The notes beneath the pieces are model-generated. The model did no database searches, was not told the origin of the DNA, and saw only the letters and a list, made by a program, of their open reading frames with translations. This document shows, piece by piece, positions 815-20,975 of a DNA stretch of 64,000 nt. Origin of the DNA: an uncultured virus (IMG/VR IMGVR_UViG_3300025751_000002) (taxonomy: Duplodnaviria > Heunggongvirae > Uroviricota > Caudoviricetes); IMG/VR virus record IMGVR_UViG_3300025751_000002. One strand, 5' to 3'. A program made the position numbers and the translations under genes. Each line of letters begins with the position of its first letter. Positions within the stretch are counted from its first letter, which is position 1.

Positions 815-2725
815 CTACACATTAAAACCGCGTTGACGTAACACCATTTGCGGATCGCGTCCCTCAATTATAGCTTGACGTACAATTTGACTTGCATCAA
901 TACTACGGCGAGCAACAGCTGTGGGACGACGTTCTGTCATTTGCTCCAGGCTAGGTGGAATTGGTACATCACCTTCAGGAGAAGCTGTGGCTTGTTCCAA
1001 TCCTTCACGCACTAACTCGTTAATTGTCATTTGAGTCGGACGTGTTGACTCAGATGAACGACGAGAGGTTTGTTCTATACCATAGACGCCACTTGTGCTG
1101 CCGGTCTGTCCTTTGGGATCATACTCGGCGACTAGACGACCACCGCCAGTTTTAGGATCTAAATCAACGGAGCGACGCCCGGCTCGTAACTCAAGAGTTT
1201 GAGGGATAATATTACCTTGCGCATCATACTCATAAAACGGACGCACGCCCTCTTGAAAATCACCAAGTTTATAAGTAGATCCCAGTGATTCCAGGGAGCC
1301 CATATACCGCCGTAAAAAATCACGCTCTTCAAGCGCATCTCCTAAATCAACATTAAGAGCCTCTGGTTTGGGTAAGTTTTGTTGTTCGTATTTAACCTGG
1401 CCGAACATCTTGGTATACGCACCACCACCTTTGGGATCGCGATCCATAGCAACACGAAGCATTAACTCTTGTTCACCAAGCTCTTCTGCTTTAGCCGCTA
1501 ATTGTTGTTGTTGTAAACCAATGGAAGAAATTTCATTGGTAAGTTCAATGTCACGTTCAAGTAAATCTCCTGTGTTTTCTGGATAATTTGTTTTTTTATA
1601 AAACTGTCCGGTTGGAAATTCTTCTGTATTAATACCCATTTGCACTGTAGGTTTTACAGTGACCGGAGTAGAAGGAGCGGCAGAAAAACGAGAAAGTACG
1701 TTGGGGTCACCAGTGCTTGCATAAAGCTCTGCTGCCTCAAGAAGTTCAGGATTTTCACTTAAAATTCGTTCAGTACGTGTTGGGCTAAACTGACCAGAAA
1801 GTTCTTGACGTTTTTGTGACAAGAACGACTGTGCTTGTTGTTGTCGTCCTTGAGTTGCAGCAGGTAGTAACCGAAGAGGCTGTGGGCCATACTGTTTGCC
1901 TTCTTGTACCAAATTAGGTACTGTTGCATCCCCCCAAAAATTAGTTTGATCCACAGGAACACCATCTGGTGTCATGGACGCAGCAACATTTGCATTACCT
2001 GTTTGACGTGCAACTTGGTTGACTTGAGAAGCATCAAGATCTTCATTGCGCTGCACACCACGTAACACTCGACCCGTCCTTTGATCTTCGCCAGATTCCA
2101 GGGCAGCCATTGTTTGCGAAGAAAGATTTTGAATATTTCCAGTGCTCTGTCCGCGCCTAAATATTTCTCCTGTATTTGGATCTGTAATTAATACATCTTC
2201 AGTAGAACCACCTTTAGGTATAAATACTTTCTGCAAATCTTCCGCAGGTTTTGCTGCAACTTTTTTATATACTTCAGCACGCCTTTGTTTTTCTGCGTTA
2301 GCTAAATATTCATCTAGATTTACGGTGGCCTGTGGGATTGCAGCTACTCTTGAAGGCGCTACGCCCTCACTAGAGGGTGGGGTGCCGGGGGTGGGCGGCG
2401 CAGGTGTCCTAGGCGCAGTAGTACCAGAAGTCCGACCAGTGGCCGCCTGACGAACGATACCTAAATCACGTTGAGGTGTACTTTGGGTCTTGGTACCACG
2501 GGCAAATCTTCTTGTTCCTGCGAGTGCAGCACCTAATGCACCAAGGCCTAATACCGTACCGCCAAGGATTGCAGGAAGATTTGACTGTTGTTCCGGTTGT
2601 GCAAGTTGCCCGCGGCGGAATGCAAGTACCTCAGGAGCTAATTCGGCCCGTTCCTGCGGTGATTCTGGGTATGGAGCACCAGTAGCACGACTATATGCAG
2701 CAAAATCAGCAGGAGATAAGGCCAT
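815..2725 (-). CDS. large hypothetical protein (possible internal virion protein)
   Basis: 636-aa ORF, low-complexity Gln/Pro/Thr stretches, one hydrophobic Gly/Ala segment. Confidence 0.75.
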   Translation of the reverse strand: MALSPADFAAYSRATGAPYPESPQERAELAPEVLAFRRGQLAQPEQQSNLPAILGGTVLGLGALGAALAGTRRFARGTKTQSTPQRDLGIVRQAATGRTSGTTAPRTPAPPTPGTPPSSEGVAPSRVAAIPQATVNLDEYLANAEKQRRAEVYKKVAAKPAEDLQKVFIPKGGSTEDVLITDPNTGEIFRRGQSTGNIQNLSSQTMAALESGEDQRTGRVLRGVQRNEDLDASQVNQVARQTGNANVAASMTPDGVPVDQTNFWGDATVPNLVQEGKQYGPQPLRLLPAATQGRQQQAQSFLSQKRQELSGQFSPTRTERILSENPELLEAAELYASTGDPNVLSRFSAAPSTPVTVKPTVQMGINTEEFPTGQFYKKTNYPENTGDLLERDIELTNEISSIGLQQQQLAAKAEELGEQELMLRVAMDRDPKGGGAYTKMFGQVKYEQQNLPKPEALNVDLGDALEERDFLRRYMGSLESLGSTYKLGDFQEGVRPFYEYDAQGNIIPQTLELRAGRRSVDLDPKTGGGRLVAEYDPKGQTGSTSGVYGIEQTSRRSSESTRPTQMTINELVREGLEQATASPEGDVPIPPSLEQMTERRPTAVARRSIDASQIVRQAIIEGRDPQMVLRQRGFNV

Positions 2726-9215: not shown

Positions 9216-9243
9216 CGTCCTGGACATGACGTTAAACTGTCCA
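9216..9243 (+). ncRNA. family A pseudoknot leader, copy 2
   Basis: CGTC-c-TGGACA-t-GACG-TTAAAC-TGTCCA. Confidence 0.65.
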
Positions 9244-9265
9244 TTCCACTTACCCACTCAATTCA

Positions 9266-11050: not shown

Positions 11051-11269
11051 ATGACTGACTACACCGATGACCAACTACTTGCCATGGCCATGGCCAACAT
11101 TGGTGAGTACATCCATGGCAACTCACCTCAGTACATCTTGATCGAAGAAGATCCTCGCAATGAGGATGACTACGACACATGGGAGTACGGCACTGAACCG
11201 TTACCTCAAGATCATACTTGGCACTCCACATCAATTGATGTAGAGGTAAGTCCAAGTGAGGCCGACTAG
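11051..11269 (+). CDS. small acidic protein
   Basis: 72-aa ORF whose stop lies inside the tRNA 5' end. Confidence 0.6.
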   Translation: MTDYTDDQLLAMAMANIGEYIHGNSPQYILIEEDPRNEDDYDTWEYGTEPLPQDHTWHSTSIDVEVSPSEAD

Positions 11270-11336
11270 CCCAATTGGCAGAGGCAGCGGATTTAAGCTC
11301 CGCCAAGTCCCGGTTCGAATCCGGGGTCGGCTACCA
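11260..11336 (+). tRNA. trnL: tRNA-Leu(UAA), short variable loop, encoded CCA
   Basis: GGCCGAC/GTCGGCT acceptor stem, GCGGA-TTTAAGC-TCCGC anticodon arm, CCCGG-TTCGAAT-CCGGG T arm, A-CCA end. Confidence 0.9.
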
Positions 11337-12828: not shown

Positions 12829-13127
12829 CAAGCAACTCCCAGTACATCTACAAGATTGGTGATCGTGTTGCTGAACGCCCCAAGCAACGCGCAATGTTTG
12901 GTGTAAAGAAAGAAACAAAGGATTGGATTAAGAAGAATATCTTCCAAAGATATGGCACAGTAATTGGTATGGTTAACAAACCAAACAAGAATGGACGTAA
13001 GCAAAAGTACCTAATCATTCAATGGGATCACCTCAAAACACCAATGCAACATGCACAAATGCGTATCTGTCCTGCAGATGCTATTGAACAGTTGACTGCA
13101 ACTGGCTATGGTTGCTCTGTTGAATAA
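12825..13127 (+). CDS. hypothetical protein, SH3-like
   Basis: YKIGDRVAE...YGTV...YLIIQWD pattern. Confidence 0.55.
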   Translation: MTSNSQYIYKIGDRVAERPKQRAMFGVKKETKDWIKKNIFQRYGTVIGMVNKPNKNGRKQKYLIIQWDHLKTPMQHAQMRICPADAIEQLTATGYGCSVE

Positions 13128-13133
13128 AAGAAC

Positions 13134-13799
13134 ATGAATGTAAACCTTGTTTGGTCAACGCCAAACGCAGAAGAGATGATCGTTAAGATGGCACGTGTCT
13201 CTGCACCAAAGAATGAAAGCAACATGGACACAGCTCCAAGGTTGATTCGTTACTTGATTAACCACAAACACTGGTCACCATTTGAAATGGCTAACTTATG
13301 TGTTGAAATCAACACAACACGTGCTATCTCAGCTCAGATTTTACGCCATCGATCCTTCTCATTCCAAGAATTCAGTCAGCGCTATGCTGATACCAATCAG
13401 CTTGGCTCTGCAGTAATCCCACACCTACGTAGACAGGATCAAAAGAATCGTCAAAATAGTATTGATGATTTACCAGTTGAACTTGTTGGCTCCTACTACA
13501 GGAGGATCAGTCAGCTGTACGAAGAAAGCGAACATCTCTATAACGAGATGATTAGCAATGGTGTTGCAAAGGAATGTGCACGTTCAATCTTACCTTTATC
13601 AACTCAAACACGTTTGTTTATGAATGGAACACTCAGATCGTGGATGCATTACATTGATCTGCGTTGCTCCAATGGTACGCAGATGGAGCATGCTCAGCTT
13701 GCACGTGAAGCAAAGAAAGTATTCACTAAAGAATTCCCTTTGATTAGTGAAGCAGCATTCAATGAAAAAGCCCTTGTTAATCAAGGGCTTAATGGATGA
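13134..13799 (+). CDS. thyX: flavin-dependent thymidylate synthase
   Basis: HWSPFE and QILRHRSFSFQEFSQRY signature. Confidence 0.95.
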   Translation: MNVNLVWSTPNAEEMIVKMARVSAPKNESNMDTAPRLIRYLINHKHWSPFEMANLCVEINTTRAISAQILRHRSFSFQEFSQRYADTNQLGSAVIPHLRRQDQKNRQNSIDDLPVELVGSYYRRISQLYEESEHLYNEMISNGVAKECARSILPLSTQTRLFMNGTLRSWMHYIDLRCSNGTQMEHAQLAREAKKVFTKEFPLISEAAFNEKALVNQGLNG

Positions 13800-13837
13800 A
13801 TTAAAAAGTAGATACTGATTCTTTCTTCAGTTCTTTC

Positions 13838-13880
13838 ATGGCACGCTTGGACTCAACATCTGAGCGTGTCATCTTTTTCT
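13838..13880 (+). terminator. probable intrinsic terminator
   Basis: ATGGCACGCTT/GAGCGTGTCAT stem followed by a T run. Confidence 0.6.
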
Positions 13881-14166
13881 TTTTGTTCACCAAGTAAATA
13901 ATGAATGCCTGGTTCACTGGATCTGACCTCCGGTTACAAAGGGAAAGTAGCAAGCGTTACGGTACTTCAAGCAGAGCCATGGACGGTGGGCTAGGTTCCA
14001 CCAGGCTTTATCTTGTTGTACTTGTTGATCTTTGTTGTAAGAGCAGCCCCTGTATGTCAATGTCATTTGATTTGGTATCTATTGATACTGAAAGTATATG
14101 ATCATTGATGTATATGAAGCTGTTCGTGCTGTAACACAAACCTCTACATAAGTAAATCTTATGGAT

Positions 14167-14276
14167 AGAGGGTGTGGCTCCACGGTAATCACGTCGCAGA
14201 GCCATTCGTTTACTAACCGAAGGAAGCTACAAAAACTTCGGTTCCCTCTGGACCTGACGTAGCTCTTCTTCGGTCC
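14167..14276 (+). ncRNA. candidate structured RNA with loop-loop pseudoknot
   Basis: four Watson-Crick stems plus AGCTAC/GTAGCT loop-loop complementarity. Confidence 0.55.
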
Positions 14277-14294
14277 TGTTACATTCTACTTGTT

Positions 14295-14322
14295 ACGTCC
14301 TGGGATGACGTTAAACTCATCC
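14295..14322 (+). ncRNA. family A pseudoknot leader, copy 3
   Basis: CGTC-ctgggat-GACG-TTAAAC-tcatcc. Confidence 0.6.
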
Positions 14323-14344
14323 GTATTCCAACTCAATTTCAACC

Positions 14345-15115
14345 ATGCAATTCCTCAAGTTCTCCAACGGCAACAGCAAGCTGACCGATCGCCTTATCTT
14401 TTCTCTGCCTGCTGGTTACACCTGTCCTCACGCTGGTGTCTGCAAAACATTTGCTGATCCAGATACTGGTAAGATTCGTGACCTGCCCCAGTACACAGGT
14501 GTTGAAGCAGCTTATGAGTTTCGTTGCTTTGCTGCACTATCAGAGAAGTATCCCAACGTACGCAACCTGCGTTGGCATAACTGGAATCTGATCCGTGAAT
14601 GTATTGCCAATCAATCTGGTGATGCACAAGCCTATGCATTGCGTGATCTCATCGACGAATCACTGACCATGTGTGCGCCCAAGAAATTGGTACGCATCCA
14701 TGAGTCAGGTGATTTCTGGACAGAGAACTACATGCGTGCTTGGGCAATGGTTGCCATGATGCGCCCATACCAAACGTTCTATGCTTACACCAAGTCACTT
14801 GGTATGTGGCTCAACTTGCAGGATCAGATCCCTGACAATATGAAGCTCACTGCATCTCATGGTGGGACACTTGATTACCTCATCCCTAACCATAAGGATG
14901 TATTCCAACGTATCTCATACGTTGTCTACACAGAAGAACAAGCAGCTGAGCTTGGCCTCGAGATTGACCATGATGACAGTCATTGCCTGGGTGATAAGCC
15001 CTTTGCATTGCTTGTCCATGGCTCCCAGAGGGCTGGATCTGACGCAAGCAAAGCGATCAGTGCACGCAAGAAGGCTGGCAAGTTTGTTGGTTACAACAAG
15101 AACAAAATGAAATAA
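14345..15115 (+). CDS. GP88-like (gene product 88) Cys-containing phage protein
   Basis: GNSKL..IFSLPAGYTCPHAGVC...CFA...VRIHESGDF...FYAYTKS. Confidence 0.7.
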   Translation: MQFLKFSNGNSKLTDRLIFSLPAGYTCPHAGVCKTFADPDTGKIRDLPQYTGVEAAYEFRCFAALSEKYPNVRNLRWHNWNLIRECIANQSGDAQAYALRDLIDESLTMCAPKKLVRIHESGDFWTENYMRAWAMVAMMRPYQTFYAYTKSLGMWLNLQDQIPDNMKLTASHGGTLDYLIPNHKDVFQRISYVVYTEEQAAELGLEIDHDDSHCLGDKPFALLVHGSQRAGSDASKAISARKKAGKFVGYNKNKMK

Positions 15116-15127
15116 CGCCTGATTTAC

Positions 15128-15175
15128 TTGCACATCAGATGGAATTCGGTAGTATGCAACCGTCTTCCATCTGAT
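15128..15175 (+). promoter_or_regulatory. sigma70-like promoter overlapped by an 11-bp inverted repeat
   Basis: TTGCAC-16 nt-TAGTAT; ATCAGATGGAA (15134) and TTCCATCTGAT (15165). Confidence 0.4.
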
Positions 15176-15177
15176 TT

Positions 15178-15411
15178 ATGAGTTACGTCATTGCTTGTTG
15201 GCTGCATGATGCACCACATGCCATTACTGCCAATAGTGAAACGAATCGATTTGATTTAATTCCACTAGAATCTGACGTGGCATTGAACAGGATTTTCTCG
15301 CATCCTTATCGCGCAGGTGCGCAACAAATCTTGTCCTGGATTAACAACAATGACAGTGAACTTGCAAGTAAAGAACTCTCAATTCAAGATGAGTCCCGCT
15401 TCCGCAAATGA
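15178..15411 (+). CDS. hypothetical protein
   Basis: 77-aa ATG ORF upstream of pol. Confidence 0.55.
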   Translation: MSYVIACWLHDAPHAITANSETNRFDLIPLESDVALNRIFSHPYRAGAQQILSWINNNDSELASKELSIQDESRFRK

Positions 15412-17212
15412 AAAGTATCTTGTCTTTGATTTGGAAAGCGATGGACTTTATGACAAAGTAACTAAAGTACATTGCATTGTCATCCATGACATTGGATCCA
15501 ACCAAACTTTTTCTTATGGGCCTGATTGCATTGCTGATGCTATTGCTCATCTGGCAACCGCTGATGTTTTGATTGGTCACAACATCATCTTCTATGACAT
15601 CCCAGTACTAAACAAACTTTACTCATTCACCACTACTTCAGAGATCATTGACACACTCATTTGCACACGACTCATCTGGCCCAAGGAAAAACTCTACGAG
15701 CTTGACCTTGAACAATATCCGGAAGTTCCACCGAACTTACGTGGATCCGCATCGCTTAAGACATGGGGATGGCGATTGGCCGATCATAAAATCGAATTCA
15801 AAGATTTCTCTGAATACTCCAGCGAAATGCTTGCATACTGCAAACAAGACGTTGCTGTTACTACAAAACTTTGGGATCATATCGCCAAGCAATCCTATCC
15901 ACCATCTGCGCTTAAAGTTGAACATGATTTTGCGCTCGCAATTAATAAACAAATTAGAGCAGGTGTTCCATTTGATGTGGATGCATGTCTTGATTTGGTG
16001 GATGATCTCAGAACAAAACAAAGCAAACTTGAAGCAGAATTAAAGGAAGTATTTCCACCTATCCAACACCACACTTGGTTTACCCCCAAGGTAAACAACA
16101 AAAATCGTGGTTATGTAAAAGGAGTTCCTTTTGAAAAGATCCGAACTGAACAATTCAATCCTGGATCTCGTCAACAGATTGTTGATCGACTTAAGCAAAA
16201 GTACGGATGGCAACCAGAGAAAACAACTGAAAAAGGAAATCCAATCCTTGATGATGAAGTTTTAGAAAAGCTCCCCTACCCAGAAGCAAAACCTCTGGCA
16301 GAGTACATGCTCGTCAAGAAACGCCTTGGTCAAATCGCTGATGGGAACAACGCTTGGCTCAAGCTGGTTAATCATGACAGCGGTCGCATGCACGGTGACG
16401 TTGTTACTAACGGCTGCGTCACTGGTCGCTGCGCTCATCGGTACCCAAACATGGGCCAGGTGCCAGCGGGTTATTCAGCTTATGGTAAGGAATGTCGTTC
16501 ATTGTTTCATGCGCCACAAGGATGGAACATGATTGGTATTGATGCCAAGGCATTGGAGTTGCGTTGCCTTGCAGGTTATCTTGCCTTATATGATGATGGT
16601 GAATATGCGCGTGTTGTAACTAATCCTGATATTGATATTCATGTTTATAATCAAGAAAGATTTGGTGTGGCCACCAGGGATATTAGTAAGCGTTTGCTTT
16701 ATGCCTGCCTATATGGGGCAGGTAATTTAAAAGCAGGAACAATTATTGAACCAAATGAAAAGGATGAGGACGTATTGCGTAAAGCAGGAAGAACTGCAAT
16801 CAATTCATTCATGCAAGGTGTACCAGCCCTTAAACAATTGAAAGAAAAAATTGATGACAACATTACACACCGGGGTTATCTTATTGGTCTTGATCGTCGC
16901 GTTCTTTATTGTCGCTCAGCTTTCAAGGGATTGAATGTGCTCCTGCAATCAGCAGGTGCAATCTTAATGAAACAAGTTGTTATTAATGTACATAACAATA
17001 TTAAACAAGTGCTTGGTCTTGAGCACGGCAATGGATGGGAACAAGTTTTAATGGTGCATGACGAGATTCAACTCGTATGTGCACCCAGGTACACAGAACA
17101 AATCAGGGAACAAGCAATGCTTGCTTTCCCACAGGCACAGGAGTTCTTTGGATTCCAGTGCGACATTGAAGGCGATTCTCGTGTTGGGACCAACTGGTCT
17201 GAAACACATTGA
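15389..17212 (+). CDS. polA: family A DNA polymerase (T7-like, 3'-5' exonuclease plus polymerase)
   Basis: ExoI DLESDG, ExoII GHNIIFYD, ExoIII YCKQD; motif A DAKALELR, B KRLLYACLYG, C VHDE. Confidence 0.95.
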   Translation: MSPASANEKYLVFDLESDGLYDKVTKVHCIVIHDIGSNQTFSYGPDCIADAIAHLATADVLIGHNIIFYDIPVLNKLYSFTTTSEIIDTLICTRLIWPKEKLYELDLEQYPEVPPNLRGSASLKTWGWRLADHKIEFKDFSEYSSEMLAYCKQDVAVTTKLWDHIAKQSYPPSALKVEHDFALAINKQIRAGVPFDVDACLDLVDDLRTKQSKLEAELKEVFPPIQHHTWFTPKVNNKNRGYVKGVPFEKIRTEQFNPGSRQQIVDRLKQKYGWQPEKTTEKGNPILDDEVLEKLPYPEAKPLAEYMLVKKRLGQIADGNNAWLKLVNHDSGRMHGDVVTNGCVTGRCAHRYPNMGQVPAGYSAYGKECRSLFHAPQGWNMIGIDAKALELRCLAGYLALYDDGEYARVVTNPDIDIHVYNQERFGVATRDISKRLLYACLYGAGNLKAGTIIEPNEKDEDVLRKAGRTAINSFMQGVPALKQLKEKIDDNITHRGYLIGLDRRVLYCRSAFKGLNVLLQSAGAILMKQVVINVHNNIKQVLGLEHGNGWEQVLMVHDEIQLVCAPRYTEQIREQAMLAFPQAQEFFGFQCDIEGDSRVGTNWSETH

Positions 17213-17264: not shown

Positions 17265-18086
17265 ATGATGAACTGCGCTTTTGTCTGTGCATCCCTCGCC
17301 GAAACACCACGTGAGGTATACACATCTGCAACTTCTTCTTCTTACTGTGCGGAAGTAATTCTTCCTAGGGTAAGTCAAAACAAATCTGAAACTCGAATCA
17401 AGTATCACGTCTATGGCAAAGCAGCAGAAAGATTCCTGCGACTCAAGCAGAACTCCCTCATCTATATCCATGGTGCCACCTTACGATTTGATGTTCAGAC
17501 CAAGACCCACTCCTTACATGCAGGTTCTCTTGCAGAAGTTACTGAATCATTCCCGATCTTCAATGATGTAATTCTTGCAGGACGTTGTATCAAAGATATT
17601 GACAAGGAAGATCCACGTGCTTTCAAGACAACTGCTGATGGCACAATGATTTGCTCGCAAACATTAAGTGTTTCCACTGGTAGAAACCAGTGTGATCTAT
17701 TTAATTTCTATGCAATCAATAATGCTAATGATCGTTTGAATCTTGCAGAACTTATCTGCAACATGACTAAGAAAGGAACAGAGATGACTCTTCGTGGTCG
17801 CCTTGTAACAGATGCATGGAATGATAAACAAACCAATGAGCGCCGTACAGCAACCAAGATTCAAATCAATAAGGTAAATATTGTACGGACTCGTGATGAG
17901 TCCAAAGATAAACCTGTGGTTTCACAAACAACTGTGGCTGCCGAAGGGAATGTAGCTAGCCTATGGGGAGGCAAAACGGTTGAGGATTCCCAGGATGCAT
18001 GGAACGAAGCATCTGGTGGTGGCTTGCCTGAACTTCCAGGTCAATACACCGCAGCTCCTGTTTTTGCATCGGACGAACCCTTCTGA
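17265..18086 (+). CDS. ssb: single-stranded DNA-binding protein, two tandem OB folds
   Basis: VYGKAAE...KQNSLIYIHG and KKGTEMTLRGRLVTDAWNDKQT; acidic DEPF C-terminal tip. Confidence 0.75.
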   Translation: MMNCAFVCASLAETPREVYTSATSSSYCAEVILPRVSQNKSETRIKYHVYGKAAERFLRLKQNSLIYIHGATLRFDVQTKTHSLHAGSLAEVTESFPIFNDVILAGRCIKDIDKEDPRAFKTTADGTMICSQTLSVSTGRNQCDLFNFYAINNANDRLNLAELICNMTKKGTEMTLRGRLVTDAWNDKQTNERRTATKIQINKVNIVRTRDESKDKPVVSQTTVAAEGNVASLWGGKTVEDSQDAWNEASGGGLPELPGQYTAAPVFASDEPF

Positions 18087-18107: not shown

Positions 18108-18134
18108 CGTCCTGGGATGACGTTAAACTCATCC
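18108..18134 (+). ncRNA. family A pseudoknot leader, copy 5
   Basis: identical 27-mer to copy 3; TACAAT box ends 7 nt upstream. Confidence 0.6.
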
Positions 18135-18155
18135 ACTTTTCACTAAGAACAAACC

Positions 18156-20947: not shown

Positions 20948-20975
20948 CGTCCTAAGCATGACGATAAACTGCTTA
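20948..20975 (+). ncRNA. family A pseudoknot leader, copy 6
   Basis: CGTC-c-TAAGCA-t-GACG-ATAAAC-TGCTTA. Confidence 0.65.

Follow-up and report, generated by a model that had tools for sequence, protein, structure and literature searches.

A conserved kissing-loop RNA in S-EIV1-like cyanophages, probably a rearranged relative of the CyVA-1 RNA

A stretch of 110 nt upstream of a GP88-family gene in an uncultured virus (IMG/VR record IMGVR_UViG_3300025751_000002; the 64,000 nucleotides analysed are referred to as the window) is, as the covariation among its homologs shows, a real, evolutionarily conserved and tightly folded RNA of about 115 bases. Its transcription most likely proceeds on the minus strand, away from GP88, and the element is probably a small RNA gene that represents a rearranged relative of CyVA-1 (Rfam RF02965). 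This four-stem form is without an Rfam family of its own at threshold and seems to be a new arrangement of a known core.

All genes of the replication module around the element are on the plus strand, including thyX (13134-13799), the GP88-family gene (PF17338; 14345-15115), a family-A DNA polymerase (PolA; 15317-17212) and an SSB (17265-18086). The PolA shares 69.6% identity with its counterpart in Synechococcus phage S-EIVl and, judged by this similarity, the source phage of the window is an S-EIV1-like cyanophage. None of the 84 ORFs of the window was recognised as a phage RNA polymerase. A plus-strand tRNA-Leu gene (anticodon TAA; 11260-11336) is the only match to Rfam above the gathering score. 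A simple promoter and terminator scan of positions 13000-15500 returned no promoter and a single terminator, the intrinsic-terminator-like hairpin with a T-run located directly 3′ of thyX (13838-13882, plus strand). Two small minus-strand ORFs are found between thyX and the RNA (13914-14066 and 13801-13953). The first of these, which encodes 50 amino acids (14066-13914), is kept in about 34 loci. Conservation is lowest at its third codon position (0.57 vs. 0.80 and 0.88), and it has a weak match to DUF4278 (22.2 bits vs. a cut-off of 25.3). Given these two ORFs, the 545-nt “non-coding” gap is in part coding on the minus strand.

A different structure, pseudoknot A3, occurs on the plus strand in at least four copies (9216-9245, 14293-14319, 18108-18135, and 20948-20975), each 48-98 nt ahead of a start codon. 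It has a hairpin-plus-tail form of 28 nt, in which the complement of the loop comes after CGTC-loop-GACG-TTAAAC, and covariation of the loop-tail pairing is seen both among the copies and among phages. Most of the 76 GP88 loci that we compared (see below) have this pseudoknot ahead of GP88, and its spread is far wider than that of the small RNA.

The helices proposed in the first-pass annotation are all present in the sequence. P1 pairs AGAGGG (14167-14172) with CCCTCT (14244-14249), P2 pairs TGGCTC (14175-14180) with GAGCCA (14199-14204), P3 pairs AACCGAAG (14215-14222) with CTTCGGTT (14236-14243), and P4 pairs GGACC (14250-14254) with GGTCC (14272-14276). The loop sequences AGCTAC (14225-14230) and GTAGCT (14259-14264) are complementary, as had been described. 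Folding of the 110 nt showed them to be more stable than dinucleotide shuffles on both strands, with a minimum free energy (MFE) of -39.4 kcal/mol on the plus strand (z -3.20, 0 of 200 shuffles as good) and -39.9 kcal/mol on the minus strand (z -3.46, 1 of 200 shuffles as good). In the nested MFE fold the loop-loop pairing becomes a single long hairpin, unlike the proposed fold. This alternative helix, formed by the 5′ strand of P3 and the 3′ strand of P4, is not kept in relatives and thus gives no evidence of a switch.

Homologs were collected starting from the GP88 protein, which as a query retrieved 76 related viral loci. Searching with the element itself (nhmmer) detected it in 17 of the 76. 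In a first alignment of 15 sequences, 97.6% of the cells were paired and 24 of the 33 pairs changed on both sides, compared with three at most in slid controls. A covariance model of the element (R1) matched the window, 17 of the 76 loci in full and one more locus that is cut at its end. Pattern scans yielded a further 13 viral loci, every one of which R1 confirmed, and a pattern scan of metagenomes added 66 of 75 loci. These matches comprise 68 distinct sequences. Removal of L161, which is an end-cut copy of the window sequence of the element, and of the incomplete second copy on L131 left 66 distinct homologs, which were aligned using MAFFT (alignment A2).

Among the 2176 cells of A2, 96.2% are standard pairs, vs. 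74.8% in shuffles, and none of 500 shuffles reached the observed value. Changes on both sides occur in 27 of the 33 pairs (at most 11 in slid controls), and the covariation score is 0.615, vs. no higher than 0.115 after shifting of the 3′ partner by 1-3 columns. In the kissing helix, 99.2% of the cells are paired and five of the six pairs change on both sides. A pattern with both loops in the swapped order was found in 62 viral loci, many of them from lower-GC, apparently marine, phages; 44 of the 60 new ones match R1 at E < 1e-5. A second alignment of 66 diverse matches (alignment A3), which was fitted to the model and so leans towards the structure, has 95.8% of its cells paired and 30 of 33 pairs covarying, P1 now being among them. 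About 30 unpaired nucleotides are invariant in A2 while all the helices drift. Because of the covariation in A2, we consider the proposed structure to be right in every helix: the homologs support all of them, and the claim that this is a genuine structured RNA with a loop-loop pseudoknot is borne out.

P4 (14250..14276) comes first among the hairpins when the RNA is read on the minus strand. All five pairs of its stem (14272-76 with 14250-54) change on both sides, and its 17-nt loop reads GAAGAAGA-GCUAC-GUCA. The 5′ strand of the closing stem P1 follows (14244..14249). It pairs with 14167-14172 and is 99.4% paired in A2, and in the wider set of alignment A3 four of five P1 pairs change on both sides, for example GAGGG/CCCTC vs. 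CCAGG/CCTGG. The second hairpin, P3 (14215..14243), has an 8-bp stem (14236-43 with 14215-22), with all eight pairs changing on both sides, and a 13-nt loop (14235-14223) that reads UUUUU-GUAGCU-UC. Positions 14225-30 in this loop form the 6-bp kissing-loop pseudoknot with 14259-64 in the P4 loop, and five of the six pairs change on both sides in A2 and A3 alike. A conserved junction of 10 nt (14205..14214; A2 columns T43, T44, C45, T48, T49, and C51 are invariant or nearly so) connects P3 to the third hairpin, P2 (14175..14204). The outer stem of P2 has 6 bp (14175-80 with 14199-204). An inner stem of 3 bp (14183-85 with 14194-96), which was not part of the original proposal, also covaries. 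A 2x2 internal loop separates the two stems, the terminal loop has a conserved ATCA, and eight of the nine pairs of P2 change on both sides (A2 and A3). The last conserved part of the RNA is the 3′ strand of P1 (14167..14172). Adjoining this end is an A/T-rich palindromic hairpin, CATAAG-N5-CTTATG (14149..14165), and a like hairpin is present at the same place in loci L025 and L154. It may mark the 3′ end of the RNA or be a protein-binding site, and its membership in the element is uncertain.

The non-Watson-Crick cells of the alignments are informative about the strand. When A2 is read on the plus strand, they include 80 A.C and only 17 G.U combinations, and standard pairs rise from 96.2% on the plus strand to 99.1% on the minus strand. 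By helix, the plus-strand ratio of A.C to G.U is 39:0 in P3, 13:0 in the outer stem of P2 and 3:0 in the kissing helix. Counted per unique helix type the ratio is 42:7 overall and 29:0 in P2, P3 and the kissing helix together, and in the wider set (alignment A3) it is 72 to 21. By a rough estimate, base composition alone predicts about 1.4:1. Intermediates between C-G and U-A are always of the minus-strand wobble type, at several independent positions and in several clades, and for 59 of 66 sequences the minus strand gives the more stable consensus fold (mean difference -3.7 kcal/mol). Some observations run counter to this. G.U exceeds A.C in P1 (5:0), in P2a (4:2) and in some end pairs of P4, and in some relatives the stop codon of a plus-strand ORF is located inside the element, whereas in others a plus-strand tRNA abuts it. 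Because of these ORFs and tRNAs, the plus strand is certainly transcribed as well. Metatranscriptomes are uninformative about the expression of the element: five RNA runs contained 5-8% of the sampled words, and four of them, compared with the window as contigs that carry no strand information, overlap portions of thyX, the block of small ORFs and GP88 but not the element.

The wobble asymmetry fits minus-strand DNA, in which G.T would be tolerated like G.U, as well as RNA, and the element is a single copy beside replication genes in this lineage. A single-stranded DNA structure acting as a priming or origin signal at the replication module is nevertheless extremely improbable. Elsewhere the element is not near replication genes, the GC-skew makes no turn at its position, it is related to an RNA family, and it is accompanied by a fixed -10 box and T-runs, which are transcription signals.

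A -10 box emerged from comparison of the homologs. The motif TAnnnT ends 4-10 nt ahead of the first stem (P4′) in 56 of 65 family members, across unrelated flanks, and the offset is exactly 6 nt in 35 of the 65, with 0-4 sequences at any other offset. In our reading, the AT-rich spacer often contains TAnnnT on the plus strand too. In the window the box is TAGAAT (14288-14283, minus strand), 6 nt ahead of the first stem, which predicts an RNA start at about 14276-14277. We read it as a putative -10-type promoter for the host polymerase. At the other end, a T-run (at least six T within the 12 nt that follow the closing stem) is present in 20 of 65 sequences and comes directly after the stem in many marine members. 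No T-run follows the RNA in the window and its closest relatives, so the 3′ end of the window RNA is undefined.

CyVA-1 (Weinberg et al., 2017; PMC5737381) is listed in Rfam with the type “Gene; sRNA.” A scan of the window against Rfam assigned no family, CyVA-1 included, to the element at the gathering score, and the window copy has no CyVA-1 match at E ≤ 10. This agrees with the earlier impression of an unfamiliar RNA. Among the relatives, 3 of 12 divergent homologs scanned by E-value match CyVA-1 below threshold (23.7-27.1 bits vs. a cut-off of 41.4). All three matches run against the orientation first proposed for the element, and each covers the P4 hairpin. The P4 loop of these relatives aligns to CyVA-1 model positions 38-68, and GAAGAAGAG-N4-GUCA fits the consensus loop. 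In the window, the 17-nt CyVA-1 loop GAAGRAGA-N5-GUCA is matched by minus-strand positions 14271-14255, GAAGAAGAGCUACGUCA, and the plus-strand columns that correspond to the GAAGRAGA and GUCA letters are invariant or nearly so in A2. The other CyVA-1 loop, G-UUUYU-N6-UCC, is matched by the P3 loop (minus strand, 14235-14223). With a pattern derived from the consensus we identified a bona fide CyVA-1 in viral contigs L191/L193 (43.0 bits), and a second one came to light later in L194 (54.6 bits). In both examples that were compared (L191 and L194), the first loop is G-UUUYU-N6-UCC, the second is GAAGGAGA-N5-GUCA, and the N6 is exactly complementary to A+N5, which gives the same kiss.

CyVA-1 and the element thus share both kissing-loop consensi and the 6-bp kiss, both occur in cyanophage-type viral contigs, and the orientation of CyVA-1 is the same as that given by the wobble and promoter evidence. 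They differ in how the hairpins are wired. The order in CyVA-1 is outer stem, UUUYU hairpin, GAAG hairpin, outer stem. In the element, the GAAG hairpin, which is second and enclosed in CyVA-1, is 5′ and outside the closing stem, and the closing stem encloses the UUUYU hairpin together with an additional, third hairpin that has the conserved ATCA loop. The element accordingly lacks the CyVA-1 topology of an outer stem round both hairpins with the UUUYU hairpin first. It is about 115 nt long vs. 77 CyVA-1 model positions, and scores 0-27 bits with the Rfam model; no four-stem member tested reached the gathering score of 41.4 bits. In combination, the loop consensi, the kiss and the strand of the matches make the family, which had gone unrecognised in the first-pass annotation, recognisable as a rearranged relative of CyVA-1. 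The wobble asymmetry, the positionally fixed -10 box and the orientation of the CyVA-1 matches are also our reasons for placing the RNA on the minus strand, and they go against a plus-strand element that acts on the GP88 gene just downstream.

We noted a third topology of the kissing pair in the viral loci L197, L199, L201, L209, L211, L212, L236, and L255 (GC about 0.32). This low-GC form is without the third hairpin and has another outer stem, and an ORF (beginning MTRE or MKKS) starts a few nt after the second hairpin. Three loci tested against the Rfam CyVA-1 model gave no match at E ≤ 1. Among the canonical copies, that of L194 (1188-1263, plus strand) is located about 20 nt ahead of AAGGAG and an ATG, and that of L191/L193 is followed by a terminator hairpin. 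Given these two settings, the canonical CyVA-1 family may include both leader-like and free-standing members.

Across phages the genomic context of the element varies widely. In S-EIV1-like phages the RNA is patchy: 17-18 of the 76 loci have it no more than 3 kb upstream of GP88, and some of the 76 have almost no upstream sequence; in one phage it is about 7 kb from GP88. The neighbours on the plus strand include GP88, an HNH endonuclease, a 118-aa ORF followed by thyX, small unknown ORFs and a small membrane protein. On the other side there may be an ORF with its stop inside the element, an abutting tRNA or a terminator-like T-run. In other phages the RNA is co-directional with its neighbours, being located after a LAGLIDADG gene in two and about 750 nt before psbA in one. 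Because the flanking genes and their relative orientation vary between phages, the element appears to behave as a free-standing small gene, possibly a mobile one, and not as the leader of one gene.

This variation bears on whether the element could be a riboswitch-like, cis-regulatory leader of the GP88-PolA-SSB operon on the plus strand, with P4 and the kiss as the expression platform. All neighbour genes in the window are on the plus strand. Almost all of the 68 sequences have a plus-strand ORF that starts shortly downstream of the element, in most cases 12-100 nt away and never more than 269 nt among those with an ORF. Most often this ORF is GP88, with three loci too short to tell. In L159 a plus-strand leader pseudoknot is located directly upstream of the element, and many invariant unpaired nucleotides are typical of aptamers. 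However, the excess on the plus strand of A.C, which is disruptive there, is opposed to such a leader, as is the variety of downstream ORFs, the occurrence of the RNA far from GP88 or beside psbA and LAGLIDADG genes, and the fact that no conserved alternative pairing was found. In L037-type relatives the terminator-like T-run abuts P1 on the plus strand, which in our reading leaves no room for a plus-strand promoter. We regard a plus-strand leader as quite improbable, and the RNA is probably not a ligand-sensing leader of GP88.

A leader is conceivable on the minus strand too, where the RNA might act as an attenuator controlling read-through into the 50-aa DUF4278-like ORF, with the closing stem and T-run of the marine relatives forming a conditional terminator. 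In the window and about six relatives, a minus-strand ORF whose third codon position is the least conserved begins about 97 nt downstream. The T-run of the marine members directly after the closing stem, the canonical CyVA-1 of L194 ahead of a ribosome-binding site and ATG, and the low-GC variant directly before an ORF would also agree with attenuation. Against these stands the situation in most of the 66 S-EIV1-type sequences, in which the minus-strand downstream region is the antisense of plus-strand ORFs or of a tRNA. The downstream genes also differ between phages and, in our reading, a conserved -10-like box that belongs to the small ORF separates it from the RNA. Attenuation fits the window but not most relatives and is unlikely, and we favour the free-standing small RNA gene.

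One copy of the RNA was detected in each of the 10 phage records searched. On one metagenome contig, L131, there are two copies about 430 nt apart (433-551 and 980-1085, minus strand), and the second is without the 3′ half of the P4 hairpin and hence without its kissing partner. A LAGLIDADG gene, identified by Pfam, is located directly upstream of the RNA in two unrelated phages (L258, 237-1013, plus strand; L261, 2113-2805, minus strand), and an HNH-type gene, identified by its sequence motif by eye, is found between the RNA and GP88 in L072 (2469-2957, plus strand). These are genes for homing endonucleases, and the RNA may travel with mobile cassettes. In L106 (1402-1475) and the clade of L125, L130, L138, L168, L180, and L181, a plus-strand tRNA gene, opposite to the RNA, ends 3-4 nt from the element.

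Relatives without the RNA (L005, L009, L016, L022, L026, L076, and others) have a palindrome near TTCCCGAACGGGAA in the same slot, with the same flanks. Its central bases vary by locus, and it is located about 20-40 nt before the GP88 pseudoknot. The palindrome looks like the binding site of a dimeric DNA-binding protein.

S-EIVl is the nearest cultured phage, and the RNA is absent from the 13.9 kb around its PolA (best score 8.3 bits); its whole record has no CyVA-1 above the cut-off. A blastn search of the intergenic region against GenBank phages gave no match. The two-loop pattern had 35 matches in contigs of cellular genomes, of which two are convincing (67.1 and 39.0 bits), two are weak and the rest are due to chance; both convincing ones are on metagenome-assembled contigs that are short or possibly mis-binned. 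When the plus-strand ORFs within 3 kb were clustered across the 76 GP88 loci, no protein family was tightly linked to the RNA. The best-linked family, an NrdR-like zinc-ribbon ORF, occurs in 16 of the 18 RNA-bearing loci and in 22 of the 58 others, a difference that kinship of the phages and unequal flank lengths could explain.

We found no description of the four-stem form in the literature, on which some unreadable supplements may bear, and the literature on structured RNAs of phage and cyanophage held nothing specific to the element. The main text and readable supplements of a 2023 catalogue of >10,000 viral candidate RNAs (PMC10690425) make no mention of GP88, and the motif may be in four files of this catalogue that were not searched.

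Riboswitch, ribozyme and sRNA had all been suggested for this stretch, and it is the last of these that the results favour. There is no match to a known aptamer class or Rfam riboswitch, no conserved gene downstream on the favoured strand and no conserved alternative pairing. The wide variation of neighbour genes between phages likewise leaves no gene-specific association of the kind expected of a riboswitch. For the known self-cleaving ribozymes (hammerhead, twister, pistol, hatchet, HDV-like, and hairpin), Rfam gave no match at E ≤ 10 on either strand. A permuted hammerhead or hairpin-ribozyme core was rejected by eye, as the core letters and spacing misfit.

A new self-cleaving ribozyme, or an RNA that assembles into dimers or rings through its loops as does the phi29 pRNA, is very unlikely. 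The covariation of the loops is the same whether they pair within a molecule or between molecules, the unpaired invariant nucleotides are many and the element is carried by phages, all of which would suit a catalytic or self-assembling RNA. The absence of Rfam ribozyme matches argues against catalysis. As for self-assembly, the hairpins of CyVA-1 are side by side inside one stem, an arrangement that favours kissing within the molecule.

We prefer to explain the element as an independent gene for a small RNA of about 115-145 nt, encoded on the minus strand and extending from about 14277 down to at least 14167. The host RNA polymerase would transcribe it from its own -10 box, away from GP88-PolA-SSB. 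The RNA is predicted to fold into a 5′ hairpin followed by a three-way junction, with the 17-nt loop kissing the 13-nt loop through 6 bp. The kissing pair would be the CyVA-1 core, and the reversal of the hairpin order and addition of a third hairpin would make the RNA a rearranged variant. What such an RNA does can be suggested only tentatively. Given that about 30 unpaired nucleotides are invariant while the helices drift, one possible role, which we hold with less than even confidence, is that the kissing loops lock a compact, nuclease-resistant scaffold that shows these nucleotides to one conserved partner in trans, on which it acts early in infection. The displayed nucleotides would be those of the loops GAAGAAGA..GUCA and UUUUU..UCC, the ATCA loop and the junction, and the partner would be a protein of host or phage, or an RNA. 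We give a distinctly smaller chance to the idea that the kissing core is a module, wired in at least three topologies, that binds a small ligand or host factor or whose loops pair between molecules. If so, dimers or rings could form, as in phi29 pRNA and large phage-associated RNAs, and the cyanophage RNA would be a new aptamer or self-assembling RNA and not a base-pairing regulator.

CyVA-1 belongs to the many catalogued RNAs of bacteria and phages that have no known function, and the two kissing hairpins emerge as its conserved core. In the form described here this core survives a swap of the hairpin order and the addition of a third domain, with a predicted promoter of its own and a single copy per phage record searched. 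It thereby illustrates how the domains of a non-coding RNA can be rearranged in nature. The RNA is found in many aquatic cyanophages, including S-EIV1-like phages and at least one contig with psbA. With about 115 nt that are well defined and strongly covarying, and >100 natural variants, it is well suited to structural and functional study. For annotation, the strand is corrected and the unsupported reading as a “riboswitch for replication genes” is removed.

Two known systems invite comparison with this RNA. The purine-riboswitch-type fold is a three-way junction with two kissing hairpin loops. The element shares with it the closing stem, the three-way junction and the pre-organisation of the fold by a loop-loop kiss, and canonical CyVA-1 has the same “tuning fork” outline. 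The element differs from the purine riboswitch in that one kissing hairpin is outside the junction, and there is no sequence likeness or Rfam match, no conserved downstream gene and no expression platform. The phi29 pRNA is located on the portal, and its loops form 4-nt pairings from one molecule to another. The element has no link to packaging genes and no sequence likeness to this pRNA was found. The two are alike in being phage-encoded RNAs of ~120 nt with their own promoter, predicted in the case of the element, a three-way junction and complementary loops that covary.
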